64,000 bases of DNA from Bilabrum cf. latius (lineage: Eukaryota), in the NCBI GenBank assembly GCA_965178125.1, contig OZ237765.1:496001-560000 (forward strand), in the 5' to 3' direction. Below the pieces are notes generated by a model, which worked only from the letters and a program-made list of their open reading frames with translations, ran no database searches and was not told the DNA's origin. Below are positions 5,823-64,000 of the stretch, in pieces. Numbering within the stretch: the stretch's first letter is position 1; every line of letters begins with the position of its first letter. The position numbers and the translations under genes were made by a program.

Positions 5823-8800
5823 ATGATGTACTATCTCGAGCCGGAGACGACCGCGGTGCTGTCTATTGCTCGCGCAGCCCGGCAGCAAGAGCCACGACGG
5901 GTGGCTGCGTGCATCGCAGCAGAGGCCACGCACCTGCTGGGCTAGGTCCGCTCCATCATTAAAGAGAACAAGGGGCAGGACGAACAAGAGGACACACGAG
6001 ACAATTCAAACGGCACTGGACACGGCTCAGCTCCCGTTATCCCTGGCACGCCCGACCTCAACGACAGTCCATCCACCAGCCAGCTCCCAACCACTGCCGC
6101 TACCCCCAGCATCGATGCCCTGGTTGGAGCATTGCTTGATCGTGAGTTCAATCGCTCCATGCAGGCTCCATCCCCGGGGACGCTCGTAGTGGTAGAAGCC
6201 ATCCGTGCGCTTGCCATAGCAAGGGGGATCGCAGCCTCGGGCAAGCCAGTGGCAGTAAGCGTCGCCACAGGCAACGCAGGAGAGAGAGACGATGGTATGG
6301 AATTCGATCCCGAGTAGCTGTTCCATTTCGGTCTTGTCATTGGGGGCTATGGCCCGAGACCATCCGCCGGAACAGGCGGGTATGCCGCCCAGCTTGACTT
6401 CAGCCAGACTGCCCTTGACCGTTTCGCCGTGGAGACCCACAAGGCCGCCCCCTCGCATGCGGTAGCCCCCGTGATCACCGTCCTCGAGAACATTCGGTCA
6501 CTCGCAAGGCGCAGCGCCAAGACAGGCTCGTACCGGATCCCCCAGCCTGCCACGATTGCATTCAGTGCCTGCGTGGGCAAGGCAGCCGATGCTATGCTGC
6601 AATCCAACAAGCGCATCAGGCTATTTCACCGGGACCGCCCGGTCAAACTGGCGGGGCGGTCAATTAGGGGGCGCACAAGGAAACAAGGCAGGCGGTCGAC
6701 TGCTGCTGCTGAGACCATGTTGCCTAGTAGTGGTGGCTCCGGCGGCTCTCTGTTGCAGTCGAACTCCACGTCTGCGTTCATGCAGGCAGGCGCTGCATCC
6801 ATGGTCAGAGCCAGGCTGGATGGAGTACACCGCATGAGTGCTTTGTCGGAAGGAGATCACCGCATGGGGGCATCATCAGCTGGGGCCAGTGGGGGTGCTG
6901 CTACTGCTGCAGCAGGCGAGTCCGACGGTGAAATTGGCGGTGATCCGGTCCATTCAAAGTCATCGGGTGGAGGCAGCAAGGGTGAAGTATTCCCTGCAGT
7001 GCCAGGTGCAATGGCTGGGGCTGCGCGGGGCGAGACCGAAGAGGACGAGACCAGGACAGCTGCTGCATCAGAAGCTGGCCTGGGTGCTGGTGCTGGTGCT
7101 GGTGCTGGTTCTGGTGCTGGTGCTGGTGCTGGTGCTGGTGCTGGTGCTGGTGCTGGTGCTGGTGCTGGTGCTGGTGCTGGTGCTGGTGCTGGTGCTGGTG
7201 CTGGTGCTGGTGCTGGTGCTGGTGCTGGTGCTGGTGCTGGTGCTGGTGCTGGTGCTGGTGCTGGTGCTGGTGCTGGTGCTGGTACTGGTGCTGGTGCTGG
7301 TGCTGTTGCTGGTGCTGGTGCTGGTGCTGGTGCTGGTGCTGGTACTGGTGCTGGTGCTGGTGCTGGTGCTGGTGCTGGTGCTGGTGCTGGTGCTGGTGCT
7401 GGTGCTGGTGCGGGCGCTGATGACCATACGCCTGCCCTAGATTTCACAGGCCGGCACATAGTGATGATTGTGCTCGACACCGGGGTGCATCACGCGTTTG
7501 CAGGCTTTCAATCGCAGCGGGCGTTTGGCACCTACGAAGAAGCTCTGTTTCAAGTGACTGGGGGCCATCCTGCGCTTGGGTCCAGGAGTAGGGTGACCAA
7601 GGGATTCACGATCCCAAAGCCACTCTAGACCACGCTGAGGCCAACGATGACTGATGATGAAAGGCGCGTAGCGCATGCAGCCCTGTCCAACCCCAGTGTT
7701 GCATTCGAGACCAGCTTTGATAAGGACCTTCACGGAACCACCGTTGCCATGTATGCCGCCGAGGATCTCGAGAGCATCATCGTCCCGATCAAGGTGATCA
7801 GCTACGAATGGGGGGAAGATCTTGCCAGGCATCCGTACTGGGAACACAAGAGGAGGGGGAAGAAAGCTCAGGGAGAGGCTGCGTCGGAAGGTGAAGAAAT
7901 AGTCGCTGCTGCTGGAGGCTCCGGTGCTGCTGGGTCTGGCACTGCTGGTGTCGCTGACGTGGTGTCCGATGCAAGTGCGGTGACTTCCAGTGAATCTAGA
8001 TCCCGCGGCGCCGAGGGCGCTGGTCAATCTCGTGAACGAGCTGAGTATAGTAAAATGACAGCATTCCAGTCCTTCGTGGGGTGGGGCATGGCTAAAGCCC
8101 ACAGGGTGGCACAGGAGGTAAACGAAGCAGCAGAAGCACGGTGGGGCTCTGCTTTCCGGAAAGGTGCAGTCCTCGGCATTCTGCAGATGTCGTTGGCAGA
8201 CTACTGTGCAGATGGAACGCCCAGAGACAGGTGCAATGAGATCAAGAGAGAAATTAAGGTTTTAGTCCAAGATCTCCTTGGCCTAGGCATAGTCTCAGTG
8301 GCAGCAGCTGGCAACGACAATAGTAAAGCATCAGACTACTACCCGTGCGCGATCGAAGATGTTATCTGCGTCGGATCTCATGACACGCCGAATCCAGCCA
8401 GTGGTGGCACACATATGTCCTACCACTCTAACTACGGGGGCAGCATCGACCTTCTTGCTCTCGGTAACGACCTCTAGGGGACGTATCTGCTTCGAGGTGT
8501 GCCTACTCGACGCAGTGCCCGAAGTGATTTTGGAACATCCTTTGCTGCGCCGATCGTCTCAAAGACAATCGCAATATTGGCTCAACGAATGAGAATTCTA
8601 CGAGTGACCAATGTGCTGCAGGTGCTCTTTGCTAATGCCAAGGATGAAACGGTTCTCCCGATAATTGACCAAGGTGGTGGCACAGATGTTCAAGCACTTG
8701 CTGAGAAGTATCGAGATGAAACTATCGCCGGGAAAGAAGGAGGAAAGGTAATACTTCGCGACATCGGAACGCCATTGGCACCCCCAACGCCGCCGTGGGT

Positions 8801-9770
8801 AGTTGAACAAGACTATCTCCTTGAAGAGGACTGTTCGAAGTGCAATCCTTCTGCGTGCCATGAGAACCTGAGAGTGTGTACCTGCGGGTGCTTCCAAGAT
8901 CTTGTAGAAGGTGAGTGTGAGGACGTATGGGAGAGTCCAAGGTCCCATGCGCCTCTTGTTCGATACAGCATCAGTACATCTGCGAGCACATCATCCCCTG
9001 CTGGCTGCGTATTGGCTGTGCTTGGCAGCGTTAAACACGAAGCTGGCTCCGTGTCCATGGAGGCCACTGAGGATCTTAGCATTAGTACGGCTAGTATAAA
9101 TCTAGAAGCTGCACACCTTATGGTCTAGAACGGCCTTCTGGTAGAGACCAGAATCAATGAAGAAGTGCTGCAGCACTTCCTGTCGGATTGCTTAGCCCAA
9201 GATCAGTCGGCACACACTGGTGATAGTCCAGGACTGGACGGCGCCCGGGATGAGCTCTTATCTGAGGACGGATCTAGAGTAGAATGCGGATGCGCCGTCA
9301 CAATTCGCATGTCTCTGTGTGGCAAAGGTGATGCAGAAGGGCCAATGGGGGACCAGCCTACACTTCACGCATCAGTTTTTAACGGATGTCCATGGAAGTT
9401 TCGCGAGGCTCAGATGGGAGAGGTGGATACAGTAGGCGTGATGGTTCCGCCGTGCGACGAGCCAGAAAGTGACGGTACAGGCCACATGTCGCTGTGCCTG
9501 GGACCTTCCGCTGGTTGCACTTCTAAACAGCTTGCGCGTGACGGGTATACAGCAATCGATCCTAGCACCCTAGTAGAAAGCCAACGTGGATCAGGACCCG
9601 CCAAGATGTACGTAGAGGTGAAGAAACTGGAGCGACTTCGCAGTTCTGACTTTCGAAGTTTGAAAGTCACTACGAATGTTGAAATGGGTAGATCTATGGG
9701 TGTGGACTCCCCCACAGAGGCTGAATCACCCGGATGCGGATGCTCCGGTTGTTGTTGCGTGGTGTCGTGA
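5823..9770 (+). CDS. Peptidase S8 (subtilase) with (GA)n tract and C-terminal CaaX; ~1315 aa with TAG read as Gln
   Basis: One frame broken only by TAG (5943, 6315, 7626, 8475, 9126); catalytic motifs VLDTG, HGTTVA, AAAGND, GTSFAAP; ends CCCVVS-TGA; start uncertain. Confidence 0.8.
7082..7410 (+). repeat. (GGTGCT)n coding microsatellite encoding poly(Gly-Ala)
   Basis: About 55 tandem hexamers. Confidence 0.95.
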
Positions 9771-9968
9771 CGTGCCAATGGCGTGCTATAGCCCGGGAGA
9801 TCCAAATCAAATTGCTTGGTTGCTTCTACCCTCCGTGTCAGTCTAATAACTAAAGCTCCCCCATCAGGCAGGTTTTGGTAACTATCCCACAGAAAAGGCT
9901 CTATACTATTCACAGGCACTGAAGTAACCGTCCGACGATTGGAGGGACGGTGGGATGGCGCACTCGCT

Positions 9969-11561
9969 TCAACCGAAGCACCCACAACAAGCAGCTCGAT
10001 CAAGATCTGTGCCATCGGATTTCGGAACCCGCTTCACAGTCCCGGAGCCGGAGAAGTAAATCGCACGCCTATTCGATTCCCTCGCCTTTGCTTCCCTTAG
10101 AATCTCCACACAGACAGCATGCCCCCCAGACTCAGCTGCAGACTCCGCGTCCAACCAAATCCCATCCACTTCCATGACTCGGTCCGCGCCCCCAGCCATG
10201 ACCCCTACTCGCAGTCGCTTGGCAAGCTCCAATGGTCGCCCTTCGGCTGCTGCCCGCCACACCAGCGCAGCATCGCGTGCAGCTGTTGCCGCGGCCCGGT
10301 GCTATAGGATTGACCTGATTCGAGATTGCCGAGCCTGGTACGCTTGATACCGTGGGAGCAGCGCGGGCAGGGAGCGCCTCCAGACCCACAGGGGATGCAC
10401 GGTTTTCCAGTCAAAGTACGCAATGTATGGATGGCTTTTCACAGCTGCAAGTACCTTCATGTACTGCCGGGAAGCCTCCGCCTCCCTACCACGGTATTCC
10501 GGCCCGTACAGAATCTCGAAGCTCCGCAGAGTCTTGTTCTAGGCGATTCCTTCACACAGCAGGTCAATGGGACATCGCTTTGGCTCAATAAGGACTTGGT
10601 CTATCGGGTATCCCAACCGCAGCCTCCGGATACTTTGAATATGGGCAATCATTCGAGACACTTGATACACAACCTGCTGCTTCGCCTCCTTCGTGTAAGG
10701 TCTGAAAATGATGGTGACCTGCACCAACGTCTTGCTGCTGATCAATGCATCGCACCAAGCAACGATCTGGGGGGCATCCACATCGCATCGACCGACATCG
10801 AACTGCCTTAAGCTTGTATTCTTGCGGATTGCATCGACCATTGCCGCGTTCCGTTGAAACCGCGTTTCCATCGTCACTGCTTCACGCGGATAGCGAGTCA
10901 GAGGCTCTCGGAGTACTAGAGTTGACAGGCTGCAATCTGGACTGGCCAGCACATCACAAAGGGATTGCACGCACTGCGTGGTCATGCTACCAGCAGCTGT
11001 ATGGGTGATGAGTAGCGAGCTCAAGGAGGTTGCTCTGCCAGCATGAAGCATGCACTGTGAAAGGGTTTTCATGCAGTCTGCTGCAAACGTACAATAACAA
11101 CAATGCAAGGTCTCAATATGAGGACGATCGCTGGTATGTGACACTAATCCCTTGAGGAGAGTGCAGGCTGAGCTGCTGATCGGTCCGTCAATGAGCCGAA
11201 GCGACTTGAGTCTGCAGCCGGCATCACGAACAAGGAGTGACAATTCCTTCAGTGCGTCCGTATCTTTAGCTGAGTTCAAAGAAATGCTCACAATGGAAAC
11301 GCCACGTCTGACATGCCCAAGAGCCGTCTGCAACGATATGTGCCAGGCACCTCGCGTGTGGTCCTTGCGATGATCAAAAAAAGCGCCGACAGAGTTCGAC
11401 TGCGGGGACCGAGCTGGTGCAATGGTAAAGATAGCATACACATGGCACAACATGCGACTCAAGAAGACATGCCAAATCGACAAGAAAGAAACAATGGCTC
11501 TGACCTCAGCTAGCAGGTTCCTAAGAAGGGGTTTGTAGTTATTTGAGTCGAATGATGCCAT
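9969..11561 (-). CDS. RNI-like leucine-rich repeat protein with ankyrin-like C-terminus (copy A)
   Basis: LxxLxL repeats (LKSLRL, LSTLVL, NTSLRQFDV, NKTLRSF); in-frame TAG at 10539 and 10302 only; likely 99-nt first intron; ends CCGCFG-TGA. Confidence 0.7.
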
Positions 11562-11762
11562 AGTAGCTTCCTGCTGCAATCAATTTACTACCACATGCGT
11601 GCCGTTATTGGTAGAATGCACACAGGAGTAATAGACAAGTTTGCACAAGCTTTAGAACATGTTCCGCTTCGTTTGACGCCGCGCATTGCATTCGGAGCAA
11701 AAATTAGAAACACAAATCGCCCAAGTCGTGAATTGCATCTTAAACCAGAATTCTTTTCCTTT

Positions 11763-12060
11763 CCAGGAGAGGATGGGATGGAGGGCGCTGTGTGGGGCAG
11801 GCCTCCAGGAGAGGACGGGATGGAGGGCGCTGTGTGGGGCAGGCCTCCTGGAGAGGACGGGACGGGGGGCGCTGTGTAGGGCCAGCATCCAGGAGAGGAC
11901 GGGACGGAGGGCGCTGTGTGGGGCAGGCCTCCTGGAGAGGACGGGACGGAGGGCGCTGTGTGGGGCAAGCCTCCAGGAGAGGACGGGATGGAGGGCGCTG
12001 TGTGGGGCAGGCCTCCAGGAGAGGACGGGATGGAGGGCGCTGTGTGCGGCAAGCCTCCGG
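11763..12060 (+). repeat. 42-bp minisatellite, ~7 units
   Basis: CCAGGAGAGGACGGGATGGAGGGCGCTGTGTGGGGCAGGCCT in tandem with no spacers. Confidence 0.93.
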
Positions 12061-12600
12061 ACGACCCCGGAGATGGATGGCCCGAGGAGAGGGGCGAGAA
12101 GAGCACGAGCGGTTTCTATTAGCATGCGGAGCGGACCCTCATGAAGATCGTGCAGGAGGCAACAGGGAGAGATTCATCCAGGGAGATCAGCACTGTGGAA
12201 ACCGAGGACAGGAACGACTCGGTTGACATCATTATCGCGAGGGACGGCGAGAAATCCATCCATGTGGACGTCACCACGTTAGACCCGGCAGCTAGGGAGA
12301 GGCAGTCCGGGAACAAGAGGAGGAAGGAGAAAGGCGACCGGTCGGCCCACAAGTTCAGGTCGATCGCGAAGAGGACCCAGGCCGTCTTCCAGGACTTTGT
12401 TGTTCTACCGACAGGGGGCCTGGGAAGTGGGGCGCGTGGGCTGCTGCGCCTGTTGGCCCGCATCCGTCGGAAGCGGGTGGGAAGGGCCCGTAGTTTGCCA
12501 GAGGAGGCCTAGATCAGGATCAGGATCTGGGCGCGAGAGATCGCCAAAGGAGTTTCCATGCTGAGCGCATGCCGCACGATTCATTTCAACCTTACGGTGC
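12060..12600 (+). mobile_element. Relic of a non-LTR retrotransposon (CRE/R2-type restriction-like endonuclease domain)
   Basis: VDIII..HVDVTTLDP..K..KF..FQDFVVLPTGGLGSGARGLLRLLA matches the PD-(D/E)xK RLE pattern; no reverse transcriptase seen. Confidence 0.55.
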
Positions 12601-13566
12601 GGAACATGTCGGGGCTTCAGGGAACGAGAGTGGCGCAGGAAACGGGTTCAGCAGGAGCTGGGACCCCCGAGGCGGCGCAAGCGGCAGCACGAGCGGAGGT
12701 AGTGTGGGCTGCGATCCCGGCAGGAGCACAACCAGGTGGTGGATCTGGGAGCGCTTGGGACGGCAGGCGGCCTTTACCCTGACCTTGCTGGTCTCTTGCA
12801 TCCCCTAGCACTCGCAGTGGGAGCTCCAGATGTGCAGAACCTCCACGGAGATTCGGCACAGCTGGCAGCTGCTGAGCTTGAGCTGGTCAGTGAGATGTTT
12901 CCTCCCGGTCGAAGTAGCCTTCGGGTGACCAAGCCGATGCAATTTGGGGACCGTCTCCAAATGATCCCCAAATAAGCTTTTGGGGACAGTGACATGTATA
13001 CACGTTACATTTATATATGTCGAAAATCCGTTGCCGCCTAGCACCAGCACGTGCGCGGGGAACAGCGTGTGTACCACACTATGTACTCACGGGTCATGCA
13101 GGACCACTCAAGGATCCTCGATTTTGTCTCGAAGGGATCGAGGAGGGCTGCAGCGAAGGCCAAACGGGCGCTCGCAAGGGCGGTCCGGGAGGACTTTGCC
13201 AGCCTGGCTGTAGGGGCAGCCGAAAACAACAACCTCGCCGTGGCGATCGCCAACGTCAAGGCAGGGTTGGCTCAGAACGGGCAGCAGGACGGGGTGCCGG
13301 CAGCGGGCGCCGGAGGGAACGTGAATGCTGACGCTCCCCAGGGGAACTGGGTCCCCAGGGTGGAGCTTAGGTGGTTCAGGCCATTGCAGCTGAAGCGTGA
13401 AGCCTGGTAGGTCCCGGGTCCTCGTTCCAGATGTTTCTTCGTGATAGCGTGCGCTTTTGAGTTGAGTCCACAAAATATCAGATCCCCCTCGAAAATTGAA
13501 GAAGAACAAAACAGCGGAAAACTGAATTGCCGACGATCATGACGGGCATTTCAGATAGCGGTAACT

Positions 13567-15120
13567 ATGGCAGCTGTTGCCGGTGCTGATCCGGCAGGGC
13601 CCAGCAACTGTACAGTTAGTGCTGTGTCGTCCATGATCACGGATTCCAAGACGAGCGTTGTCCTTGCAGAGCAGCGGCTCGAGGATGGCGGGAAGCTGGG
13701 CGCGTTCTCGGTTGCCTGGGAGGACACGTCCCGTATTGCTGATAGTGTTTGGGGGCACAACATTACCGATATAACACTGAAAGTGAGAGTATACCCGCAC
13801 AATTCCACTGGGTTGGTGCCATTCTGGCTGTGTAGGCAATTTGCGGTCGAAGCTAGCAGATGCATGACCGCCTTCAAAGGGCAGAAGAATTGACCACGAT
13901 CCCCATAGCTGCCTCCTCTTTTTTACTTCTTCTATTTGCAGACCGTTGATTCTGATATTCGCCTGCCGATCATCCGGCGCAAAAACTACACGGACGTGAC
14001 AGCGGACCGCTCAATCGACAACTTCATGGTCAAAACAGGCCTTGAGAAGCTAGTTCCTGGAAGCACACACGACAAAATCGATGCCAGTAAAATCAAACTT
14101 GAAGAAACCGGTCTCTCCGATTTCCTGAACGATCTATCCGGTACATACGCCAAGGGCATCCCCGTGGAAGGCGACGGAGAGCTGGCCAAGACAGATGACC
14201 ATCCTGTGCTCCTCACAAGCATGTGTCCTTCCGGTTAAGGCAGGCGGGCACACGGACTTTGATATCAACGCCTTCAACTACCAGTCTCAGAGTCGTGATG
14301 CTGGCCCCGCATGCCTCGTCATCATCGCCGGTTCCAACGGCACCAGCGTGCACCTGACGCAACCAGGAGAAAGCCAACTGCACTTTCGGATCGGTGAGTC
14401 GCGCATGTTCAACTTTAGGGCAACGCGTCTGTCTGATGACAGAGCAGCGAAGGGTGAGGCCTCTGGTGCCCCGGCTACCACTGACGAGAAGGCGGACAGC
14501 TGCCTCTTTGTCTACCAGGTGCCGCTCAAGAACACTTTCGAGACCTGTGCTGGAGCAATGGAAATCTACGTCAAAACTCTGACCGGAACAATCATTGCGC
14601 TGTAGGTATCGTCGTCGGACACGATCGAGGATGTGAAGCAGCAGATCTGGTGCAAGGCGGGCACGTCTCCGGACCAGCAGCGCCTGATCTTCGCCGGGAG
14701 GACCCTGGAGGACGACCGTACGCTGGCGGACTACAACATCGAGAAGTGGAGCACTTTGCACCTTGTGCTGCGGCTGCGTGGAGGAGGAATGCCTGCTGAA
14801 ACGGAGATGGCGTAGCTCAAGATGCCAAGTGGCTGGACCGACCTCCTGCGCGTTGGAGAGGATTCGAGAGGGACTGGAGCATGCCCATCAGGTGCACTGT
14901 TTAGTACTACTACGCTGCCGACTCCGCCGATGTCACCCCCGAGCTCGGCAAGGAGATCGCGGATCGCCTGTCGCTGATCTACAACAACGCCAAGGCGGTG
15001 GGCTCGCTGGTGACAGGTGGAAAGGCGTCCCTGAGCCGCGACACGGCGACGTTAGACACTATGGCGGGTGTGATAGAAAAGGAAGCGGCCGAAAAGTCCA
15101 CCATAAAGGGGTTCTTCTGA
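13567..15120 (+). pseudogene. Conserved uncharacterised protein with an internal ubiquitin-like domain; two apparent frameshifts
   Basis: Exon 1 WEDTSR..WGHNITDITL; intron 13783-13941; Ub domain 14558-14785 ([26 protein letters not shown]); C-terminal ERD..PIRCTVxYY..VGSLVT ending TGA at 15118; frame changes near 14200 and 14795. Confidence 0.6.
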
Positions 15121-15379
15121 TTTGGACCGGTTTAGGGCTTGGTTCTGTAGTTCCACAAGGTGTACTAAACCCAGACAGACAAATGTAAACATCTTCTGCT
15201 ATATAGACGCGACGAATGTGAAATTCAAAATTTAATGTGTCGCAGCTTCAATTTCTTCATATTCTAGTGAAGTCGCACGCAGTTGCACTTGACTCGATCC
15301 GGATCTTCCAGCGCGTCACCGATGCTGGTTCAAGCTCTGAGAAGGTACTTTTTCGTCGACTTTGCGTGGGTCCCACCTG

Positions 15380-18300
15380 ATGTGGCCATTGCGTTCGGCC
15401 GGTGCAGTCGCAGCGCTTACTGCAGGTATTGCTTTGTCGGTAAGAAGCCACAGCGAAGAGCCCTCTACAAAAAGAGCCGAAGCATGTCCAGCACACAGCG
15501 AGCCAATTGTGCTTTCCGAGAGTTTCCATATTCAATTTATCTAATTTTGCAGGCAGAGCTGACGGTGCACTGGGTGCCACATTCTCACGACGATGTCGGG
15601 TGGCTCCAAACGACGACCTCCCTGCATCGACAGAACGTGTCACACATCATTGATGGAGTGCTTGGACAGCTTACGGATGAGGCCGATCCGGGTGGAATCC
15701 GGCGGTTCTCTTGGGAAGAAGTTGCTTGGCTGCGATTCTGGTGGATGACGGCGACTGAGTCCCAGAAGCAAGCCATGCGAGCTGCGCAAAGGAGTGGCAG
15801 GCTCGGATTCTACGACTCTGGAATAACGCAGCACGACAACGCGTGCCCTGACATGGATTCTATGATTTCAAACTGGGAGGCGGGCTGGCGCGTGCTTAAC
15901 TTCACGGTCGGCAGAAGCGCTCTCCCTCGCACAGCCGCGTCGCTCGACCCGTTCGGGCTGTCTGCAAGCAACGGCGCCTTGCTTCGGTAGGCGGGCATGC
16001 AGGACTGGGTGTTTTGGAGGATGCCCCGGCAGGATAGGGAGAGGCTGGGGAACATGAGCGCCCTCGATTTCGAGTGGAGGCCCAGCTCAAGCGTGCCAGC
16101 CGTTGGGGGAGTGCTGGTGCATGAGACCTGGCTCAGCTACTGCATCCCTCACGACTTTGAGTTCGGGCAACCTGGGGTGAGCATCCCTTCCTCTCCTGCA
16201 GACTTTCAAAAGCTAGCGACTGAGCTAAAAGGCATGATCGCCGAGCGAGCGCCGACCTATCCCACCGACAACCTGATGTTCCTGGACGGCTGCGACTACC
16301 ACTTCCAGCACGCACAAGCCAACTACGACTCGGGACAGAAAGTGCTGGAGCTGCTCAATGGCACCAGCGTCACCATTCCGGGCCGGGGCGACGTCACGCT
16401 CGTCACACGGTTCTCGACCGCGGAGGAGTACTTTTCCGCGGTGCGGCGAGACTCCACCGGTGGGTCGGCGGCCGTTCCGTCCTCCAGCTCGGCTGTGGCA
16501 GCAACCGGTTCAAGTGATACCGCCACCGATGAAGCCGCTGTGCAGCTGCACGTGAAGCAGGACGGGGGAGACTTTTTCACCTACAGTTAGAACTACGGCG
16601 ATCCATGGTGGGCTGGGTACTTTGTGTCCAGGCCGCTGCTCAAGCAGAGGGAGCGGCGTGTGACGAGTGCTGTTCGGGCCGCCGGGATCGCGCGTGCGAC
16701 CGTTGGGCTGGCGCGCGGCGCCGCAGCGGAACCGGAAGACTGGGAGGACGCCCAGGCTGCTGCCGCCATCCTTACCCACCACGATGCCATCACAGGCACG
16801 GCATGTGCGGCAGAGGAAGGGTGCACAGGCAAGCAGGAGATGTCCGGCGCGCACGACGTGGTGTCGGACTACCACAGGATCCTGGATGCTGCGGGTGCCA
16901 CGGCCTCTTCCCAGCTTGCCGCCGCTCTGGGCGCCGGGCCAACCGCAGCCGAGTCGCTGCAGGAGGTGGCGAAAGCCGCGGCGGCGGGTGACGTCAACGC
17001 GGCAACTCTGGCAGCGGGTCACCTTGCAAGGTCGCGGGCAGCGTGGTCGTACTGGTCGCAAGCCATGAACGATAGAGGGTACGCTGGATCTCCCGCCACG
17101 GACCCCAGGCAGCTTGCAGCGGTGCTCGAGGCCGGTCTGCCGGGCTACCTGACCGTTTTCAACCCGTCAGGCGGGGCTAGAACGGACGCGCTGTACGTGC
17201 CCATGTCCGTATGTGACGCGGACGTGGAGCTCGTCGGGGGCTCCATGATCGGATCAAAGATCGGATCAGTGCCCGTGTTCGAGATCAAGGCCCAGACGTG
17301 GATCAACGACCTCAGCCCGTATTCGTTCATCCTGACCCTGCACGTGCAGCACATCCCGCCGCTGGGCACCGCCGTTTACAAGATCACGCCGCACGTTGAA
17401 CGCTGCACCGCCGCGCAGCTGGACCTCGACCAGCACGAGGTTCTGCAGGGGGCGAACGGGCTCTAGGTCAGGGCAGGGACACCTGAGCCTCCTCCCATTC
17501 CCAAGCGTACCATTGAGAGGATCGAGAACGGCTGGATCGCGGTGGACATCGATACGTGGACAGGACCCGCGTCCTGGATCGACAAGACCACGGGTAGGAA
17601 GACCAGCTTCACGCATGGACTCGTCTGCAGGCCCGCACACGGTGACGCGTACGCTATCAACCGGACGCACGGAGGTGATGAGTCGTGCGACGGTCACGCG
17701 GCGGGACAGGCTCCGTACCAGGTGAGCGTGCACCGGGGAACAGCCACACAGGAGGTCAGGATCCGTTACACCGATTCATTCGCGGTGTTCTACAGGCTAC
17801 ACGTGGGACCGACTGCCAATGCGTCGGCGGGACTCGGTGCCATGCTGCACGTCGAGGGCAGGCTCGGGGTGCTGCCCCCTGGAAGCGACGTGTCGTCAAG
17901 GTTTGACGTCGGCATCGACAACAGCCTGCCGCCAAGGATGTCCGGCCAGCACTGCATCGGATGCGGCGACCGTGCGGCAGATGGTACTAGCTACGACTGG
18001 GCGCAAGAGAGCTCGGCACTCCGCGGATCCGGAATCGAATCCCATGGCGCCACGAGTGCCCCTTGGATGTACGGGGCCCAGAACGGGTATGAGGTGGTGG
18101 GCCGGCGCTGGAACGGCTCCCTAGTCATGCCTGGGGACGGCAACATGTTCCCCGTACAGGCTGACGTGTTCCTCAGGGGCAACTGGGCCGGAGAACAATT
18201 GAAGTGTGACGAGTGCGGCCGGGCCCAGGCAGGCGCACCGCCCCCGTTCCCGGTGCCGTGGCTGGACGGCTCCCAGGCCCAGCTGACGGTGGTCGTGGAC

Positions 18301-24522: not shown

Positions 24523-24613
24523 TCTCCGCAAATCGTGATAGAGCAATTTAGGGGCTACGTTGTTGGTTTGGACTGCGCAGCCTTCGGTCAAAAAATATAG
24601 ATAGTCGATACTT

Positions 24614-35598: not shown

Positions 35599-35632
<34 letters not shown>

Positions 35633-37322: not shown

Positions 37323-39022
<1,700 letters not shown>

Positions 39023-44611: not shown

Positions 44612-44648
<37 letters not shown>

Positions 44649-52853: not shown

Positions 52854-54445
52854 ATGCTGGCCCGTGTAGCTCGCCAGGTCGCTCGTGCCAGCTCTGGCAC
52901 TTTGCGAATTGCCCCTCGCGTTCGCGCGTTTGCTTCTGGTGAGTGTTTTGTCTCTTGGGATTGGTCAGCGTATGGATTTGTGAATGGCTCGATCGGCTCC
53001 GTTGGAACGTCCTCGAATACAGGATGGCATGAGGCCAATATGGGCCCAGTATTTCCTCGATGTATGTACTTATTAGAACATATTTCGTTATAGTCGCTCT
53101 CCATCAAGGGTTTCGACCTTGTGCGGCCTAGTCGGTGCGAGGTGCCGGCGAGCGCGGCACCTGTACCGAGCTGTGGCTGGCCCGTACGAATCGTTGCGCC
53201 CGCACTTTATCGCATTGTTGAGGACTGGTGAATGATGTTGAAGGCTCACCTGAGGCCAGAGTGCTGCCATTGAGTGGCCACACGTACCGAACTATCTGTC
53301 ACCGCTCGAGCCATCTTCACGAACACGCAGTGTCGCGGCCGTCCCTTCAGGCGGCAGCCGCTTCTTCGGATGATTCTGAGAAGGATGGTTACAAGCCCGG
53401 CCCACACAGCGATATGACTGATTACGGCATCGATAGGAGCAACCCCGAGAACGCCCCCTCGACGTTCACCAAGTGGCACGAGTATGGCACCACCGGGCGC
53501 ATCGCCCCCGATGGCTGGAAGGAATGGAGCGATTTGCCCGCCCCGTACAAGTACTACCAGGTTAAGGTCAACCCCAAGGATGTGGAGAAGTCCAACTTTT
53601 TCCTGGATCTCCTCGGCAACTACAAGACGGCCGTCCCCCTGTCTCTCGTGGTGGCCTTCCCCTTCCTCCTCAACGGCACCATCGTCATGGACGAGCACTT
53701 CGAGCTCGGTGCCATCTTCTTCACTGTGGTGTACATGCTCTCCGGTGCCGTCGGGGACAGCGTCAGGGAGGCCGTACTCGCCCCCGGCCTGCAGGCCCGG
53801 GACCAGCTCCTCAGCAAGGAGAAGGCATACAGGGAAGCACTGAGCGCCGCGCTGAGCGCCCACGAAGCGGCGCAGAACCTCCCCGAGGCAGCCGCTGAGT
53901 TCAACAAGGGCGTGCGCGCCCTCAGGCACGAGCAGGCCGCGGCTGACACCCGCCGCGCCCGCGCCGCCGTCCGCGCCAGGTACGTGGACATGCTCGAGTA
54001 CATGGTGACGGCGCAGAAGGCCGCGGGGGAGAGCGATCCCTCGGAGATCGTCGCGGCGGCGGCCGTGGAGGACGTGAGCGCCCAGCTGAGCGACGCCAAG
54101 GGTGCCCTCGCCAAGTCGGTGCTCAAGGACGCCATCGGCGCCCTCAAGACGGGCAAGGACGGCGACAAGAGCCTGCGGGCCGCGGCCAAGAGCGCCTTCT
54201 TCAAGGCGCATGCCAATCCCCCCAAGCTGGACGACGCCGCCGAGAGGCAGGAGCGCCGCGCGAAGCAGATCGAGACGTTCAAGCAGAGGTTCGGTTTCAC
54301 CGGGACTGTCTCGGGCAAGGACATTGATGCCGTGGTCGAGGACCCGGTGCAGCAGGCCGTGCTGCGGGCTAGGCTCGGCGGGGACGCGCCCGCGCCGGGG
54401 GCTGCCTTCCAGGAGAAGGTGCCCATCGAGATGCTGAGGCAGTGA
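52854..54445 (+). CDS. Mitochondrial ATP synthase subunit b, presequence exon plus intron from 52939
   Basis: Arg/Ala/Ser-rich presequence; AVPLSLVVAFPFL..MDEHFELGAIFF..GDSV followed by a long helical stalk; acceptor at 53330 or 53357; TGA stop. Confidence 0.7.
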
Positions 54446-55278: not shown

Positions 55279-56043
55279 TCACTCGCCGCACGAGGCTGGG
55301 CGGCCGATGTACCTGTCGGGCGTTATGAAGGGCTACACCCCCTCCTTCATCCCTGGGAGGGCACGCTCGTCGGTGGACTCATCCTCATAAGTCCCAATGA
55401 CTCTCGGGTCGTTGGAGTCGCCGCACGCCGAAAGCTCGAGAGAGATGAGGCCGGCCTGCTTGCTTCCTGAGGACCAGAGGACTGCGCCCTGCCCGTCCAC
55501 AACGTACAGCAACTGCTCCGATGATTCATCGGCGGCAGGCAGCACCAGCTGACAGTCGCTTCCTTGCCCATTCGTGTCACTCGACCACACGACACGCTCC
55601 AGGTAGCGGTCCTTAACCTCCGGCTGTTCGGATAGGGGCAGCACCTCTCTATTGGCATCCCTCTTTAGGACAATCGGGTGCTTGTCCCTAGCTTGCGCCG
55701 AGTACTCGTAGAGTACTGCATTACAGTCTTCTTGCATTACGAGCTCATATCTCGTGAAATACACCATCGGGTCCTTCTTTTTGTCCCAAGAGTAGACACC
55801 GGCTATATCCTTGTAGATGCTCTCACCGGGCCCCAAGCGCTGGCTAGTCTTCATACCGGCAGTTCCATTTGCACTTGTGTAAGTGCTGATGTCATCCGTG
55901 AACGATGGGCCTTCTTTACTGGCAGGTTGGAGCACTTGCTGCTCATGGAGATGCTTGTGCCTGATGCCACCACGACGAAGCCCTTGCAGGCCCACGACTG
56001 AATGCATCATTAAAACACTGGACGCAATGGAAAATAGAACCAT
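55279..56043 (-). CDS. Secreted bulb-type (B) lectin domain protein; 3' end uncertain
   Basis: Signal peptide; LVMQEDCNAVLY..VVWSSDT..LYVVDGQGAVLWSS; TAG at 55333. Confidence 0.65.
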
Positions 56044-56700: not shown

Positions 56701-56893
56701 TCGAACGGCCTAGGAGACTCTCAACTCGAGACTCTTTTTCGTTCAACAAGTTGTAGCGTGCTGAACTTCATTGAATGTTCGGGATAAAAATCCAGATAGC
56801 GTGCACCGCAGTTCTCGAGAATCCAGTTGGTTGCTGGGGGTTCTCCTAGCGGTTCTGAGCCTTCGCATCGCTGGATTTGGAGGTTTGTATATA

Positions 56894-59800
56894 ATGGCAG
56901 CTGTAGCTGCAAGCGGAGCCGGAAGTGCTTCCCCCCCTGAGCCATCCAGCACCGATGGAGTTGCGATCTTGCCGACGGTGCTGAGACGGCACAAACTCCT
57001 GGAAGACCGCCGAGTGTCGAGCTTGAAGAAAGCCTCACTTGCCGTAACTAGTCAGCTTCTGAAGTCTATTGCCGAGAGCAAGCAGAAGCTCGATTTGGCG
57101 AAACCAGTGACTGCTCTGCAGGCACAGCTCGCAAAGCAGAAACCTCGTGCTTTGTTCGAAGACTGGTCTCCGCCAAGGCGACCAGGAATCATCAGGGTAC
57201 CTCTTGACAAGAAGATGCTATCCGTGAGCTCCAAGGACAAGTCGTCTACGGGCCCCGCCTCGCTCCTCGAAGAGGGATCCGACAAGAGCTGGGAGAGCAA
57301 GGCGAACCCGAAGGGAGGCCGCTCGAAAATAGTCATCGATCCCGGCTTTACCTTCAACGCAACCCACGTCAGGGTCGCATTTCCCGACGACGAATCTCGC
57401 TGCGAGACGCTGACGGTGTACGCCGCGGATTCCAAGCGAAAGGGCTGCTACAAGCTCCTCTCAGTCCCTGGGAAACAGATCGCAGACGCGGACGCAGGGG
57501 AGGAACTGACGTACCTCGACCTCGGCGGTGCCCGCTGCAGGGAAATCCAGATCGTGCTGGAGGGATTCGACCGCAAGAACACGGAGAAGCAGCACTGCCT
57601 CAACGGCATCCAGCTGTACAGGCTTCGCGAAGACCAGGAGGTTGCTGAACTCCAGGGCGTGCTGGGCTCGCTCGAATCGTTCCTCGCCGAATCGGCGCAG
57701 CCGGGCCGCGCCTCCGACGAGGACGTGCGGCGGTCGGCCCTGGCTGCCCTCCAGAACCTGTGCCTGTCGTCGGCTAGCCTGTCCTCGATGACGAGTGTGC
57801 TGAGGGTGAGGGTGCAGTGCATTGCATTGATATGCAGTGCCTGTCGGTTGCTGTTAGCTTGTTCCTCCGTGTGTGTGGATATGGCATGTGCTGTCCGCCG
57901 TGTGTGTGTTCGTTGCTGCTCGTTTGGCTCCCTGCCGGTTATTGACCGATAGGACCAAGCACCCCGCCTGTCTGACGCCTTGTACCAGGTACCTCCGTTT
58001 GTGTTTTCCTCCAACCACTTTTGCAGGCGCTGCTGGGCCACAGCGGACCGCTAGGCACCGAGCTTTCTCGGAGAACGTTCGCTTTCCTGCAGGGTTTGGA
58101 CCGCCAGTACGACGACCTGTGCACGCAGCTCTTCGCGACGTCCGGCCCTTCAGCCATGTCCTTGTCGTGTGAGTGTGACGAGTGCGACTGAGTGTGTGAC
58201 GACTACGGAGTGGCGTGCTTCACTGGCTGCCATCCTGTCTTTGTCTTCTGGATGCCTTGCCTTGCACACCCAATCGACTGAACCCATTGCACCCCATCGA
58301 CTGAACCCATTGCACCCCATCGACTGAACCCATTGCACCCCATCGACTGAACCCATTGCACCCCATCGTCAGAACCGAACTCTTGCTACTGCCTGCCTGC
58401 ATGTCGCCGCCATCCCTTTGTCTTCATTCCGGAACTCTAGCGCAGTCAGCCTCGAGGCCGGACCCGGGTGCACTGTGAACGGGATGGAGGTGACCGGCAA
58501 CACGTCCAGCGGCGCGTACGCTGCACTCAACTACGGGATCGACAGCGGCAAGATGGAGTGGCAGTGCACGAACGTGCAGGACGAGGAATACGACGAGGCC
58601 TCTCTGTACGGTATCTGCACCAAGCCGATCACCAACAACAACTATGAGTACAACCCGAGCTTCTGGACCATCCGCGCGTACAACGGGCAGGTGATGCAGC
58701 AGTCTAGCTACGGCACGTCACTGGGCCGCATGCGGCAGGGCTCCAAGATCAAGTTCGTGCTTGACATGGACAAGGGCGAGTGCCAGATGTGGCACAACGG
58801 GGCGCCCAAAGGCCCCATCTTTACCAACCTCAAGTCGCACGGCAAGAAGTTTTACCCGCTGGTCTGCTTCTACTCGAGCAACCGCAAGGTCAAGTTCGAC
58901 TACATCAAGATCCTGTCGGGCAGCAAGTCCTCAGGCGACTCGGCGGGCGGGGGTGGCACCAGCGTGGCATACCTCGGCAGCATGGAGCCATCCGCCGTGC
59001 AGGGAACAGAGACCAAGCAGATCGGCGCGGGGGCCATGCGGTCGGAGGACTCTACGAGCCCCATCGTCATCAGCAGCGCGTCGAGGGGAGAGCTCACCAC
59101 GGAGCACGGGCTGTCTGTGCCGCTGCCCGAGGGCGCCGAGGGCGACTCGTTGTCCAAGGTGACGTACGAGCTGGACAAGTCCGCTGGACTCGACGTGTTC
59201 CAGGCAACGGTCGGGCTGTGCGACCCCTAGAAGAGGAGGAAGAAGAGGTCAAACCGGCGCGGTGCTGCGGACGAGGACGAGGAGGAGGGTGGGGATGCAG
59301 GTGAGAGCAAGGAGGCGGAGGAGGGCGCGTCGGGCGCTCTCGAGTCCAAGGAGGCAGAGGTGGACGGGACCGGAGCTCTAGAGTCCAAGGAAGCAGAGGT
59401 CGGCGACGATGCTGCTGGTGGAGGGGCAGCGACCGCCGCATCGTCCGGAGCAGGTGCCGGCGCCGGCAAGGGCAAGGCCAAGAAGGAAGACGAAGCGCTC
59501 GCAACGATTCAATTCGTGCTGGAGGGCGACGGGAAGCGCCTGTGGCGGAGTAAAGAGTTCGTCGTGCCTGTCGCGGGGCAGGACCTGCCCGAGGCATCGC
59601 CCGAGCTGGACGTGCAGGATGTGATGGTGCGCGTGAGCGGTGTCCGCAAGCTCGCCCTCAAAGTGACACAGTCTGTTGGTACCAAGGACATTTTGCCCGT
59701 GTGGATGGACGCCCGCGTCAGGCGGGCCCCCTGGCTGCTGGAGCGGCTGGAGGCATAGACCAAGCGAGCCCAGGAGAAGAAGAGCGACGAGAAGAAGAAG

Positions 59801-61987
59801 GCAGCCGCCGAAGATCGTCCGTCAGCAAGTGGCACGGCGCGGGCAGCCTTCGGTGCCGGCGGAGAAGGCGATCAAGAAGAAGGAGCCGAAGGTTCGGCCG
59901 ACGGAGGTGTGTCACCGGTGGTGGCAAGCCCCGTGGTGGCAAGCCCCGTGGTGGCCAGCCCCGTGGCGGGTGCCGGCGAGGACGAGGAAGATGAGGAGCT
60001 GACCGGTGAGCAGGCCGCTGGCAGGCTACTGGACGTTCTGGGTCTCTTCGGGCGTCAGGCGGTCAGGGCGATGCGGGGCAGCAGGCCGGTGAGGGAGCCA
60101 GGGCAGCCTAGTCCTGCGCTTGAGGTGCCGTACGTGGTGCAGAGCGACGCCGAATCCATGGGCCGCGTGGCGTCTCTCCTTGACATGCTCCGCTCTGCGT
60201 ATGACGAGTGCGGGGAGGATGAGAGTGGCAAGAAACGCGTGTGCGGGATGATCGAGACTGTGCTGAGCCTGCTCAGCCTCAACTTTAGGAGGCTGGGGTA
60301 TGCCGGCGTTCATCCCAGTGAGGCCGGGTTTGATGTGGCCGCCCCGCCGCCCACATTCCCCTACGTGTCGTTGAAGAAAGACAAGAAGAAGAAGGGGAAG
60401 AAGAAGAGGAAGGGGGGTGACAGCGGCAGCGAAGATGAGGACGGTGGCGCGGGTGCCGGCATGACCGACGCCGAGCTCGCCATGCAGCTGTAGGAGCAGG
60501 AGGAGCGGGCCATGCTCGAGGCATCCGGTGCTCTGGATGGGGCGAGCGGGGACGGCGACAACGACTCGGATGATGATGACGAGGAGGAGGACGGTGACGG
60601 TGACGGCGACGGTGACGGTGACGGTGACGGTGACGGTGAGGACGGTGGGTCTGATGGAGCGGGCGGGGCCGGAAAGAAGGCCGACAGAAAGGCAGCCAAG
60701 GCCTCGCTGGCCAAGCTCCAGTCCGTGCTAGAGGGGATCTACGCGGCCGAGCAGCTACCCGGTGAGATCCGCGCCGAGGCCGCCTCTGTTGTGGACCACT
60801 CGCTGCCTCTGTTCTATCCCTCTACAGAGGAGAGAGCAGCCCTGCTCAGGCGATGCACGGCGGATGGCACGGACGGTGTGGTGGAGCTGCAGCTGGCCTG
60901 GCCGGTGGAGGTGGCCGGTGGTGCTGCAGGGGGCAACGACGGCGATGAGGAGGAGGAGGGGGGGTCCGCTGCGACGGGCGGGGCAGCAGGTGGGGGAGAC
61001 TCAACGGATAGCCGGTTCGAGCGTGCGGTGCTGCTGGTGCAGTCGGCGTGCCGCAGGTCTGGCTGGAGGTGCGAGATCCTGTCGCTGTGGAAGCAGTCGA
61101 TCCACCTCGTGCTATCGCCCCCCCGGAGGACGTCAGCCGCATCCGCCGGCCCCCGGGGCGCTGCTTCAGGGAACAACGACGGGTCCGTGGGACCCGTTGC
61201 GGAGCTGCTCACCAAGACGCTGGCCGAGGAGCTTGACCGGGCAGGCATCGCCGGGTTTGTGTTCCCCGAGGGCTGCCAGCTGGACGACCTCGGGTTCTGC
61301 CTGGAACGTTCGCTGAATTTTGACCGCCAGAAGAGGGTGGACACGGGCCCGTCCATCGGGCTGGTGCGGCTGTATCCCGCGGGGAGCACCTCTGCAGACG
61401 CGGTGGTCGAGCATATTCAGGCGTACTTGGACAACGCCCACTAGAAGCAGCAGGAGAAGAAGAGGAAAGCAGAGGAGGAGGTCAGCGGGGTCCACGTGGA
61501 CCGTGATGATGATGACGACAACAGCAGCACCGCGCCCTCGGAGGCAGGTGAGGAGGGGGACGGGCCGCCAGTGCCACTGCCTGGCGCGTTCGGGTTCGCG
61601 ATGGGGGGGGTACCGAGGGCCGGTACTTTCGGGGGAGGGTTTGGAGGACCAGCTCCCTCCGCTCCATCGGGTGGGGGCTTTTCCTTCGGAGCCAGCGCGG
61701 GAAGTAGGTGGGGAGGCGGAGCGCCCACCATGGCTGCGTCCAGCTCGGGGGGGGGTGGCTTCAGCTTTGGGGGGGGTGGTATGGCAGCGCCCACCATGCA
61801 TTGGGGGGCCGCCGGTGGGACTCCGCCCGTCCCTCCTGCATTCCTTGTTGGGAGAGGGGGAAGGGGAGGAAGGGGCGGAAGGGGCGGTGGAAGGTCTGCG
61901 GGAGGGGCGGCGAGGCGGACTGTGAGGCGATCTGCCAGAGCTGAGAGGCGCGGTGTATTTGACCTGGGCGATGAAATGGACTTCTGA
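56894..61987 (+). CDS. Large multi-exon protein with DOC/galactose-binding-like, SPRY, NPCBM-like and MIU-like parts; resembles the N-terminal half of giant E3 ligases
   Basis: SPRY motif (KIKFVLDMDKGECQMWHNG..FYPLVCFY); frame 58418-61987 broken only by TAG (59228, 59756, 60491, 61442); TGA stop. Confidence 0.62.
58273..58368 (+). repeat. 23-bp tandem repeat x4 (intronic)
   Basis: ATCGACTGAACCCATTGCACCCC. Confidence 0.9.
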
Positions 61988-62227: not shown

Positions 62228-64000
62228 ATGCGGTCCATTATATCTCTAATTGCATGTTCTGTATCAATTCTCGGTATTGGTACCGAGTGCGTGCGCCACG
62301 GCACTGGGACAGGCCGATTAAGATTCAATGCAAAGCGCATGGGCGCTCTCGAGACTCGCGTGCTATCCGAGGCTACATCTGGCGATGTTGGGGACGCAAA
62401 AACGCTTGATATAACGACAAGAAAAGGCGGAGATGAGCTCGATGCCATCAAAGGGATGGATTACCTGGGTAAGTGCTATTAATGTCGAATGTCTACAATG
62501 CGGCTCACTTGTAGCCCCACTTCTTAAAGCTAGCATTCCTTGTAACCCATCGAATGCAGGCATGGGGATGAACATGATTTTAGGGAGCCCAGGTAGCGGT
62601 GCAAACGGGGCCAAAAACGACTTTTGGCACGAAGCCATCATGAGCCTGGTCTTCGGGCAGTCCTCACAAACCAGAAGCGGCATGGCGCTCTAGCCTGTCG
62701 GGGGGCAAGCAGTGCCACTAACGAGATGTTTCAGATCATCATCCTCTTCGAAGTTCTCGACTACCGAGGAGCTGCAGGAGAGCTACAAGCAAGACTTTTC
62801 CGCCGGTTCGGAAGGCGGTGTGCCAGGGCTGCCTGCCGGCTTGGAGTTTAGCTTTTCGCAAGAGATGCAGGACTTCAACGAGCGCGTCGCGAAGTCGGAC
62901 ATTTCAGAGTATCGCACATCGGTGACTTGCACGTATTACCTGGTGCGCATCGACGACGGGGAGGCCGGACGAACTGTGAAGACCACGCCCCGATTCAAGC
63001 AGGCCGTGGCAAAGGTGGCAGTGGACAAACCCGAAGTCGAGGATGTCGTCAGGTTCATTGACGAGTTTGGCACTCATTTCGCGCGCGAGATCACCCTGGG
63101 AGCCTCTCTCACCCACGTGATGACCATCGCGTCAGACGAGGTGGAGAAGATCGAGAGCAAGGGGCAATCCGTCAGCGCGGCGATCGACGCTGCCATGATC
63201 AAGACCTCGACTTCGGGCGACTCAGAGATCAAGAAGATCGCCAAGCACCTGCAGGAGCACATGCAGACGCGCACGGAAACGATCGGGTCCGCACCGCCCA
63301 GTGCGGACCCGATGGATCCGGAGGCACCATCGCAGCTGGCCGAAGCAATGGCCGACAACCCCGCACCCGTGCGGGCAATACCTGCTCCGTTTTACGAAAT
63401 CCGCAAGGAAGACGGCGACGGCTTCGTCATGACCCGGGATTAGTACAGCACCATGATCGACATGTACATCAAGTACCTCAAGGGGAACCAGGAGGCCGAG
63501 CTTCTCAGGAAGCCGAGGACTTCGATCCGGATCGGCGACGAGCTGCGGTCGGACGAGGAGGATGCCAAGAAGCGCGCCGTGTTCGCCCCGGGCAAGTCCA
63601 CCATCCTCCAGCTGGAGACCAACGGCGAGCTGGTGCTCAAGAGCGCGGCGGGCCACACGCTCTGGAAGGTGACCCCGCCCGCCAAGATGCACGGCAAGGA
63701 GCTCAAGGGACCATTCGCGCTGAAATGGCAGGAGGACGGCCACATCGTGCTGAAGGGCAACCTCAAGTCGCCCTACTGGTCCATCGACGTGAGCCCCGAC
63801 GGCTGCACGGGTGTGATTCCCTTCGATCTCACCGTGCGCAAGTCGGGCGAGTTTGTCGTGCAGTCGGCTGACAGCCGCGTGATGTGGAAGTCCGACAGCA
63901 AGCTCGGGCAGGAGTCCACGAGCAACGACGGCCAGCGTGGTGCCATGTGCCAGCACGGAGAATTCAAGGGCATGCTGGAGCGGGGTGACTTCATCCGAGC
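62228..64000 (+). CDS. Secreted MACPF (perforin-like) protein fused to a bulb-type lectin domain; runs off the window; intron 62469-62559
   Basis: Signal peptide; DYLGMGMNMILGSP; FIDEFGTHFAREITLGA signature; C-terminal LQLETNGELVL..LW, WQEDGHIVL..W; TAG at 62691 and 63441. Confidence 0.8.

Follow-up and report, generated by a model that had tools for sequence, protein, structure and literature searches.

A stretch of 64,000 nucleotides from the genome of Bilabrum cf. latius (contig OZ237765.1 of assembly GCA_965178125.1, positions 496,001 to 560,000; the whole stretch is called the window below, and all coordinates are those of the window) carries protein genes whose reading frames are interrupted over and over by TAG. 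We asked how UAG is read in these genes: as a stop, as a codon for one particular amino acid, or as both. We put a probability of about 0.85 on the reading that UAG is an ordinary sense codon in the cytoplasm and specifies glutamine (Gln), with UGA as the usual terminator and UAA as a rare one. If UAG is Gln, it makes up ~12% of the Gln codons. The DNA is nuclear and comes from a GC-rich (~58% GC), intron-poor eukaryote, as transcript contigs lack three introns with GT..AG ends and the domains encoded (ubiquitin, WWE/DTC, MACPF) are of eukaryotic kinds. About 22 protein genes can be recognised on the two strands of the window, several of them open reading frames (ORFs) without a family.

TAG inside genes and transcripts

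About 70 in-frame TAGs in about 18 genes had been counted in the initial annotation, and our recount bore this out, with ~74 in 19 of the 22 recognisable genes: 69 in 16 models anchored on an ATG, two in the third exon of a zinc-finger gene, two in a MACPF-domain gene and one in exon 2 of purB. This corresponds to ~4.8 TAGs per 1000 codons (73 in 15,223 codons, in a count for which the frame of the zinc-finger gene was off). Along the genes every decile is filled, with 4-11 TAGs per decile and 5 of 69 in the last one. Stop-to-stop ORFs of at least 500 aa number one in the window under the standard code, 16 when TAG is taken as sense and one when TAA is taken as sense. Six ORFs of more than 1000 codons (1619, 1379, 1369, 1230, 1219 and 1020 aa) are present only with TAG as sense, while the longest ORF is 546 aa both under the standard code and with TAA as sense. 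With TGA as sense the longest ORF reaches 885 aa at most, although TGA is the commonest of the three triplets (901 occurrences in this comparison versus 496 of TAG and 242 of TAA).

The same picture was obtained when we looked at the open frame around individual stop triplets. At least 150 open codons flank 20 of 1032 TAGs on both sides, compared to one of 1794 TGAs and none of 508 TAAs. When the flanks were relaxed to at least 100 open codons, the numbers were 31 for TAG, 14 for TGA and 3 for TAA, and the corresponding means in 50 local shuffles were 2.9, 3.2 and 2.1. The lone TGA with flanks of at least 150 codons lies between two plus-strand ORFs of the same frame (56765-58327 and 58328-61987). 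Upstream of it, 57800-58324 is non-coding by score (-9.9), and a 69-base repeat coding for STEPIAPHR is duplicated on either side of the TGA; because of these two features, the stretch around this TGA is most likely an intron of the SPRY-domain gene rather than a case of TGA readthrough.

Homology was said in the initial annotation to continue across TAGs in purB and in the GH38, Deltex DTC, ubiquitin, FN3 and MACPF domains. Pfam matches do span a TAG in six families (Glyco_hydro_38N, DTC, WWE, ubiquitin, fn3 and ASL_C), the last of these being the match in purB, whose TAG was placed at 37596 and indeed occupies 37596-37598 on the minus strand. The statement fails for the MACPF gene, in which the Pfam match covers residues 144-333 and both TAGs lie outside it. 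In the Deltex-like gene the matches have E-values of 7.9e-50 (DTC) and 1.2e-26 (WWE), and the GH38 gene is identified by matches to Glyco_hydro_38N and Alpha-mann_mid, by alignments to structures in the PDB and by a relative that is 63% identical (P0121).

To see whether TAG is kept in mRNA, as the initial annotation had proposed to check, contigs from three further sequencing runs were compared with the DNA over the region 20150-40100 (X5 and X7 from one study, X6 from another). Contigs of all three runs carry the joints 31858>32224, 32321>32443 and 38137>38323, which correspond to GT..AG introns (CT..AC on the minus strand), and none of the three joints is found in the DNA run X1, which spans the purB intron. 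The spliced joints indicate that X5-X7 hold cDNA. A caveat is that the RNA label of these runs was a guess, with X5 even marked 'probably DNA', so that their RNA nature is deduced from the joints themselves.

Nineteen of the 30 in-frame TAGs of the region lie inside the listed X5-X7 pieces, and at these sites there are no differing letters, no gaps and no joints. They comprise 11 of 11 TAGs in the large LRR gene (in two runs), three of five in the EF-hand gene, both TAGs of the zinc-finger exon, both of the Deltex-like gene and the single one of the FN3 gene. An X5 contig (24499-27697) and an X6 contig (24886-27731) span all 11 TAGs of the LRR gene with no other letters, a spliced X5 contig (32443-34882) holds both zinc-finger TAGs, again with no other letters, and pieces of X5 and X7 cover the FN3 TAG at 39399. 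The other 11 TAGs (eight of the 1544-codon gene at 19888-24522, two of the EF-hand gene and the one of purB) fall outside the listed pieces and were counted neither way. Variant places listed for the region are 22542 and 29903 only, neither of which is a TAG. As the TAGs in spliced contigs are identical to those in the DNA, TAG is neither edited nor spliced out.

Duplicated segments gave a view of how TAG behaves over time. There is a 7.3-kb inverted segmental duplication in the window (4491-11730 and 40251-47481, 94.9% identity), which carries subtilase-like and LRR/ankyrin-like genes, and a third copy of 1.8 kb, in direct orientation (40248-42030 and 47474-49274, ~95-97% identity), which holds an LRR/ankyrin-like gene. 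Between these paralogues (~95% DNA identity), the subtilase-like pair has kept TAG at five of six sites, and the LRR family has done so at 2-4. In each segment downstream of a TAG the ratio of non-synonymous to synonymous substitution rates (dN/dS) is below 1 (range 0.18-0.77, from small counts). That TAG is read as sense is thus supported by the ORF statistics, the domain matches, the spliced transcripts and the conservation between paralogues with dN/dS <1.

Two explanations that do without a sense codon have to be weighed here. The first is that the TAGs are untranslated, being pseudogene lesions, assembly errors or triplets removed by splicing or RNA editing, as in-frame stops usually are; we found nothing in its favour. 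TAG alone breaks the frames, and TGA and TAA do not; moreover, the DNA agrees with the transcript contigs at the 19 listed sites, TAGs are kept between paralogues under purifying selection, and the purB gene of a relative (L001, see below) has an in-frame TAG of its own. We give this explanation practically no credence. Alternatively, UAG could still be a formal stop at which near-cognate tRNA-Gln(CUG) takes the place of a dedicated suppressor tRNA, and such readthrough is described in organisms with the canonical code (PMC13192750). However, TAG occurs in 19 of 22 genes, at ~5 per 1000 codons, and as often as 11 times in one of them. At this density a full-length protein needs near-complete decoding at each site, for which leaky readthrough is insufficient, and we consider this explanation very improbable.

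The amino acid at TAG

Which residue is inserted at UAG? We scored the same five gene pieces with Pfam after translating TAG in six ways (Q, E, K, L, Y and W) and used the bit score of the TAG-holding domain as the measure of how well the residue fits the profile column (Table 1). When the scores of the six domains are added up, Leu, Tyr and Trp fall short by 12-19 bits, and Gln, glutamate (Glu) and Lys are tied. Leu was rejected as the meaning of UAG on the basis of its Pfam sum and of its frequency at the two purB columns described below (3 of 120 and 0 of 120 homologues).

Table 1. Pfam bit scores of six TAG-holding domains with TAG translated as each of six residues
Domain	Q	E	K	L	Y	W
GH38N	121.4	120.7	120.9	119.5	118.5	117.8
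DTC	170.0	170.2	170.1	167.6	168.2	167.5
WWE	94.5	93.5	94.6	92.9	92.1	91.1
Ubiquitin	86.0	87.6	86.3	83.6	83.5	82.9
fn3	34.5	34.7	34.0	32.5	33.0	30.7
ASL_C	147.8	148.0	147.6	146.0	146.4	145.4
Sum	654.2	654.7	653.5	642.1	641.7	635.4

Close relatives of purB decide between Gln, Glu and Lys. At the window's TAG there is a Q in each of the two nearest database proteins, P0002 (87% identical) and P0001 (78%). The DNA behind P0002 is a 2591-base metagenome contig, L001, which shares the position of the purB intron with the window, ends its gene in TGA and was the only close relative among the 80 loci found in the metagenome scan with purB. Over exon 2, 232 of 270 residues (86%) are identical between L001 and the window, and the two sequences form reciprocal pairs: the window's TAG faces CAG in L001, and an in-frame TAG of L001 (…GGA GTC GAG TAG AAC CAG…) faces CAG in the window. 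At both of these sites P0001 has Q. Exon 2 also contains 30 Glu positions with GAG or GAA in both the window and L001, and at none of them is Glu paired with TAG.

We then looked at the two columns in 120 purB homologues. At the window's TAG the residues are E78, Q16, D11, A5, L3, K3, S2 and V2, and at the L001 TAG they are W68, F25, Q12, H5 and others, so that Q is the sole residue that is frequent in both columns. Among the paralogues of the window, TAG/CAG differences represent two independent events. The initial annotation had named Gln as the most likely meaning of UAG, and the reciprocal TAG/CAG pairs with L001 together with the purB columns bear this out.

Several observations pull the other way. 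The Pfam sums by themselves do not separate Gln from Glu and Lys. TAG faces GAG once and TTG once between paralogues. In two more distant relatives, of other genes, Q occurs at none of six TAG sites: TAG faces K, Y and E (the E in a poorly aligned part) in the GH38 relative P0121, and R (next to a gap), S and E in P0128, which is related to the LRR gene (77% identical). All these partners except R are one point mutation away from TAG, as expected from ordinary replacement at variable sites whatever TAG means. At TAG 8475 of the subtilase-like gene A the column is hydrophobic, as 25 distant homologues have L8, V4, I3, Y2, two gaps and six singletons, with no Q, and solved subtilases show T, L and L. 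Finally, the Gln assignment depends mainly on two sites of one gene, purB, and it assumes that the organism of L001 reads TAG in the same way.

The competitor for the identity of the residue is Glu (or Lys). It would fit the Pfam sums equally well and the ubiquitin domain better, it would match the prevalence of E in the column of the window's purB TAG, and it would agree with the TAG/GAG difference between paralogues and with the E at two sites and the K at one site in P0121 and P0128. On the other hand, both reciprocal purB pairs with L001 are CAG, the conserved Glu positions of exon 2 never pair with TAG (0 of 30), the two closest relatives have Q at the window's TAG, and neither E nor K occurs in the L001-TAG column. 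We therefore regard Glu or Lys as quite improbable, anything else as less probable still, and keep Gln as the preferred residue.

The relatives also bear on how widely the sense reading of UAG is spread. Since L001 combines an in-frame TAG with a TGA terminator, the trait is that of a clade rather than a peculiarity of one strain. P0121, which comes from a public assembly and is related to 15862-18186, has no in-frame TAG in 787 codons, where the window has three and a rate of 4.8 per 1000 would give ~3-4; this is a hint of a reassignment that is confined to a subclade. No relative was found in the metagenome scan with the GH38 gene, and when viral contigs were scanned with the SPRY gene and the Deltex gene, only low-complexity matches came back. 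In the representative search with the subtilase-like gene, matches to Gly-Ala repeats crowded out the rest and left ~25 distant S8 hits usable, and a 'shorter' search with the 11-TAG LRR gene returned one match, P0128. Named matches of the GH38 gene are only 21-24% identical (plant or nematode), and those of purB are ~60-64% identical and gammaproteobacterial.

Termination and decoding

Can UAA and UGA still be stops when UAG is not? The 21 complete ORFs end in TGA in 20 cases and in TAA in one (24520-24522), which agrees with the ~20 TGA ends and the TAA end at 24520 given in the initial annotation. TGA also follows the C-terminus in those genes in which the true end can be assessed, as the end of purB is level with its homologues and CaaX-like ends are present in the FN3 gene and in the subtilase-like genes. 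Past the TAA at 24520 the frame stays open for only 40 codons, up to a TGA, and has a non-coding score (-4.0). If TAA were Gln as well, a CAA:CAG ratio of 172:377 and 73 TAGs would predict ~33 in-frame TAAs, but none above background were seen in the open-flank test and the gene models of this one 64-kb window. Therefore the possibility that both UAA and UAG (UAR) are Gln, as in NCBI table 6, was rejected, as TAA as sense lengthens no ORF either. The earlier claim that UAA and UGA remain stops is upheld by the same observations: no gain in ORFs with TAA as sense, no TAA bridging open flanks (0 of 508), the unmet CAA:CAG expectation and the 20 TGA ends. It should be added, on the side of caution, that the TAA end is a single case.

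Genes were also said never to end in TAG. No ORF with a TAG end was found, but this holds by construction, because the ORFs were delimited with TAG as sense, and two TAGs could in fact terminate. TAG 14813 lies 10 codons past the RLRGG of the ubiquitin-like domain, and the 53-codon tail that follows has a coding score of -0.7; this TAG may be a true terminator, or the site may hide an unrecognised intron. TAG 55335, 18 codons ahead of a TGA, could be a real terminator too.

These two sites are what favours a dual, context-dependent UAG, which would be sense within genes and would terminate close to some 3′ ends, like that of Condylostoma, karyorelictids and Blastocrithidia. However, TAG does not become scarcer near the ends of genes (the last decile has 5 of 69), each of the 21 complete ORFs runs on to a TGA or TAA, and the C-termini that can be judged are followed by TGA. 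In addition, the codon-usage coding score is a weak test, as a tail that is conserved between paralogues (24617-24936) also scores -1.8. A dual role is in our opinion unlikely, and UAG as a plain sense codon for Gln remains the reading that we prefer.

How could UAG alone be recruited? UAG would be decoded by a dedicated tRNA with the anticodon CUA, which pairs with UAG and not with UAA. The anticodon must be CUA because UAA stays a stop: a tRNA with UUA would read UAG by wobble and drag both codons along. The difference between the two anticodons, CUA reading UAG only and UUA reading UAA and, by wobble, UAG, is set out in PMC11687900 and PMC5304391. The simplest route to such a tRNA would be the duplication of tRNA-Gln(CUG) followed by one anticodon change to CUA. 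In parallel, eRF1 would have lost efficient recognition of UAG while keeping that of UAA and UGA. It does not help this proposal that ARAGORN and Rfam found no tRNA genes in the 64-kb window (nor was there any other Rfam match).

Gene content and comparison with known codes

The features of the window are collected in Table 2. TAG 8475 of the subtilase-like gene A falls inside the stretch covered by S8 homologues, and gene A is the paralogue of the gene at 42219-46136. The purB gene is of the Escherichia coli-like type, 60-64% identical to gammaproteobacterial enzymes, yet it has a spliceosomal intron and an N-terminal extension. Long in-frame microsatellites occur as Gly-Ala runs in the subtilase-like genes (6900-7450 and 44500-45100) and as an Ala-Pro run in the Deltex-like gene (35600-35900).

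Table 2. Genes and introns of the window, with their in-frame TAGs
Feature	Position	Strand	In-frame TAG	End	Remarks
Subtilase-like gene A	5823-9770	+	5943, 6315, 7626, 8475, 9126	TGA	1315 codons
LRR/ankyrin-like copy 1	9969-11561	-	10541, 10304	TGA	530 codons
Repeat-containing ORF	11595-12782	+	11877, 12120, 12510	TGA	395 codons; in-frame coding score +59
Ubiquitin-like domain gene	14195-14977	+	14603, 14813		14603 within ubiquitin domain (Pfam 3.1e-24); 14813 past domain
GH38 alpha-mannosidase	15322-18963	+	15988, 16588, 17464, 18595, 18643, 18730	TGA	1213 codons
Family-less gene	19888-24522	+	21301, 21940, 22000, 22384, 22432, 22984, 24391, 24406	TAA (24520-24522)	1544 codons
Large LRR gene	24614-27667	-	11 (27433 to 24937)	TGA	1017 codons
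EF-hand gene	28010-30151	-	30055, 30004, 29656, 29113, 28825	TGA	
Zinc-finger transcript, intron in 5′ part	31859-32223	+			spliceosomal, GT..AG; joint 31858>32224 in X5, X6, X7
Zinc-finger transcript, second intron	~32322-32442	+			joint 32321>32443 in X5, X6, X7
C2H2 zinc-finger gene, last exon	32444-34729	+	32789, 33761	TGA	Pfam zf-C2H2
Deltex-like gene	35043-37124	+	35229 (WWE), 36621 (DTC)	TGA	two WWE + DTC
purB, adenylosuccinate lyase, bacterial type	37323-39244	-	37596-37598	TGA	exons ~38323-39244 and 37323-38137
purB intron	38138-38322	-			CT..AC; joint 38137>38323 in X5, X6, X7
FN3-domain gene	39265-39897	-	39399 (within fn3)	TGA	CaaX-like end
LRR/ankyrin-like copy 2	40425-42011	+	40503, 41004, 41073, 41439, 41676	TGA	
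Subtilase-like gene B	42219-46136	-	46016, 45878, 45644, 44360, 43514, 42854	TGA	
LRR/ankyrin-like copy 3	47657-49255	+	48248, 48317, 48683, 48920	TGA	
DUF4200 coiled-coil gene	50672-52378	-	51526, 51514, 51355, 50899	TGA	
Gene	53222-54445		none		
Family-less gene	55279-56043	-	55335	TGA	254 codons
SPRY-domain gene	58484-61987	+	59228, 59756, 60491, 61442	TGA	1167 codons
MACPF-domain gene	62433-63998	+	62691, 63441		runs past window edge
PhoPQ-related hydrolase gene	in window		none		
FUN14 gene	in window		none		

A plus-strand ORF of 343 aa at 53414-54442, with a very high GC content at third codon positions (0.85), free of TAG and without a Pfam family, was placed by its ESM-Atlas features with clusters of mitochondrial ATP synthase subunit b (score 0.91, 30 of 30 hits); a Pfam search at E up to 10 gave no support for this identity. 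At 30140-30805 the word depth is 300-540x in all four runs, compared to 5-70x in the surroundings, and many contigs join 30437 or 30560 to other places (33517, 36816 and 20823), with loose ends that are rich in CAG/CAA-like repeats. A short element of low complexity, or one in multiple copies, is the probable cause of this disturbance of the assembly; Tandem Repeats Finder found no repeat in it. In the DNA run X1 there is a C>T change at 22542 (38.9 of 88.2 depth, present in X5 too) and a 1-base deletion at 38198 in the purB intron (46 of 76.5 depth), which suggests that the material sequenced contained two alleles or strains.

Finally, we asked how the codon usage of the window relates to the codes that are already known. 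Its pattern is of the Iotanema type and the same as NCBI table 15; the code has thus been described before, though probably not in this lineage. Panek et al. 2017 (PMC5304391) describe UAG as Gln in the fornicate Iotanema spirale, which keeps UAA and UGA as its stops and whose eRF1 carries T32G in the GTS motif. The window resembles it in the codon table, in coming from a non-ciliate nuclear genome and in the predicted tRNA-Gln(CUA) and altered eRF1. However, UAA is the dominant terminator of Iotanema whereas TGA ends 20 of 21 genes here, and Iotanema is an anaerobe known from its transcriptome whereas the window is genomic DNA of ~58% GC.

The phyllopharyngean ciliates Hartmannula sinica and Trochilia petrani are also described to read UAG as Gln (McGowan et al. 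2024, PMC11687900). As in the window, UAG alone has become Gln and is widely used as sense, so that UAA and UAG are decoupled. The two ciliates prefer UAA as stop, in contrast to the TGA stops of the window, which is moreover a GC-rich 64-kb stretch with many genes and spliceosomal introns. In our judgement the genome architecture seen in the window is unlike that of a ciliate. The heterolobosean Dactylomonas venusta, which was missing from the list in the initial annotation, reportedly has UAG as Gln too (in work by Panek and colleagues of 2025 in Mol Phylogenet Evol 204); it would then share the reassignment with the window and be a non-ciliate flagellate as well. It is described as anaerobic or microaerophilic, with acristate mitochondria (PMC12328842). 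ATP synthase subunit b, if it is encoded at 53414-54442, would misfit the anaerobes Iotanema and Dactylomonas, although this lead comes from ESM features and has no support from Pfam.

Other codes share some of these properties. In the rhizarian exLh and in an uncultivated phyllopharyngean clade UAG is described as Leu and UAA is kept as a stop (PMC5304391, PMC11687900), UAA being the dominant or preferred stop of exLh (PMC5304391). These codes are like that of the window in changing UAG only; however, Leu lies 12 bits below Gln over the six Pfam domains of the window, and purB lends it no support. UAR is Gln in many ciliates, hexamitin diplomonads, some ulvophytes, Amoeboaphelidium and oxymonads (NCBI table 6). 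There TAG and TAA are both Gln, whereas in the window only TAG is. CrAss-like and other phages with code 15 also read TAG as Gln (PMC9523058), but they do so with a phage-encoded suppressor tRNA, whereas the window belongs to a eukaryotic nuclear genome with spliced mRNAs.

We consider the chances about even that the window represents a further independent origin of the change of UAG alone to Gln, in an aerobic, GC-rich, non-ciliate lineage that ends its genes almost only in UGA and has the trait in common with at least one environmental relative. Literature searches found no GC-rich non-ciliate with UAG as Gln other than Iotanema, in a coverage that leaves out most subscription journals. UAA and UAG nearly always shift their meaning jointly, and the few cases in which UAG alone has changed show that the two are mechanically separable (PMC5304391, PMC11687900). 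For Iotanema and exLh the tRNA genes were beyond inspection in Panek et al. 2017, as no genome existed at the time (PMC5304391).

As gene calling with the standard code fragments almost every gene of this genome, its annotation must be redone with TAG as Q. Because genomic DNA is at hand, tRNA(CUA), eRF1 and glutaminyl-tRNA synthetase could be inspected directly. If the independent origin is true, the predicted tRNA-Gln(CUA), the changes in eRF1 and the adaptation of glutaminyl-tRNA synthetase could here be read directly for the first time in a non-ciliate lineage of this type, as an assembly and several transcriptomes exist, and the more distant, TAG-free relative P0121 would serve as a contrast. 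A lineage with UGA as its main terminator would also add a different evolutionary route to the reassignment of UAG from those taken by lineages that terminate with UAA.

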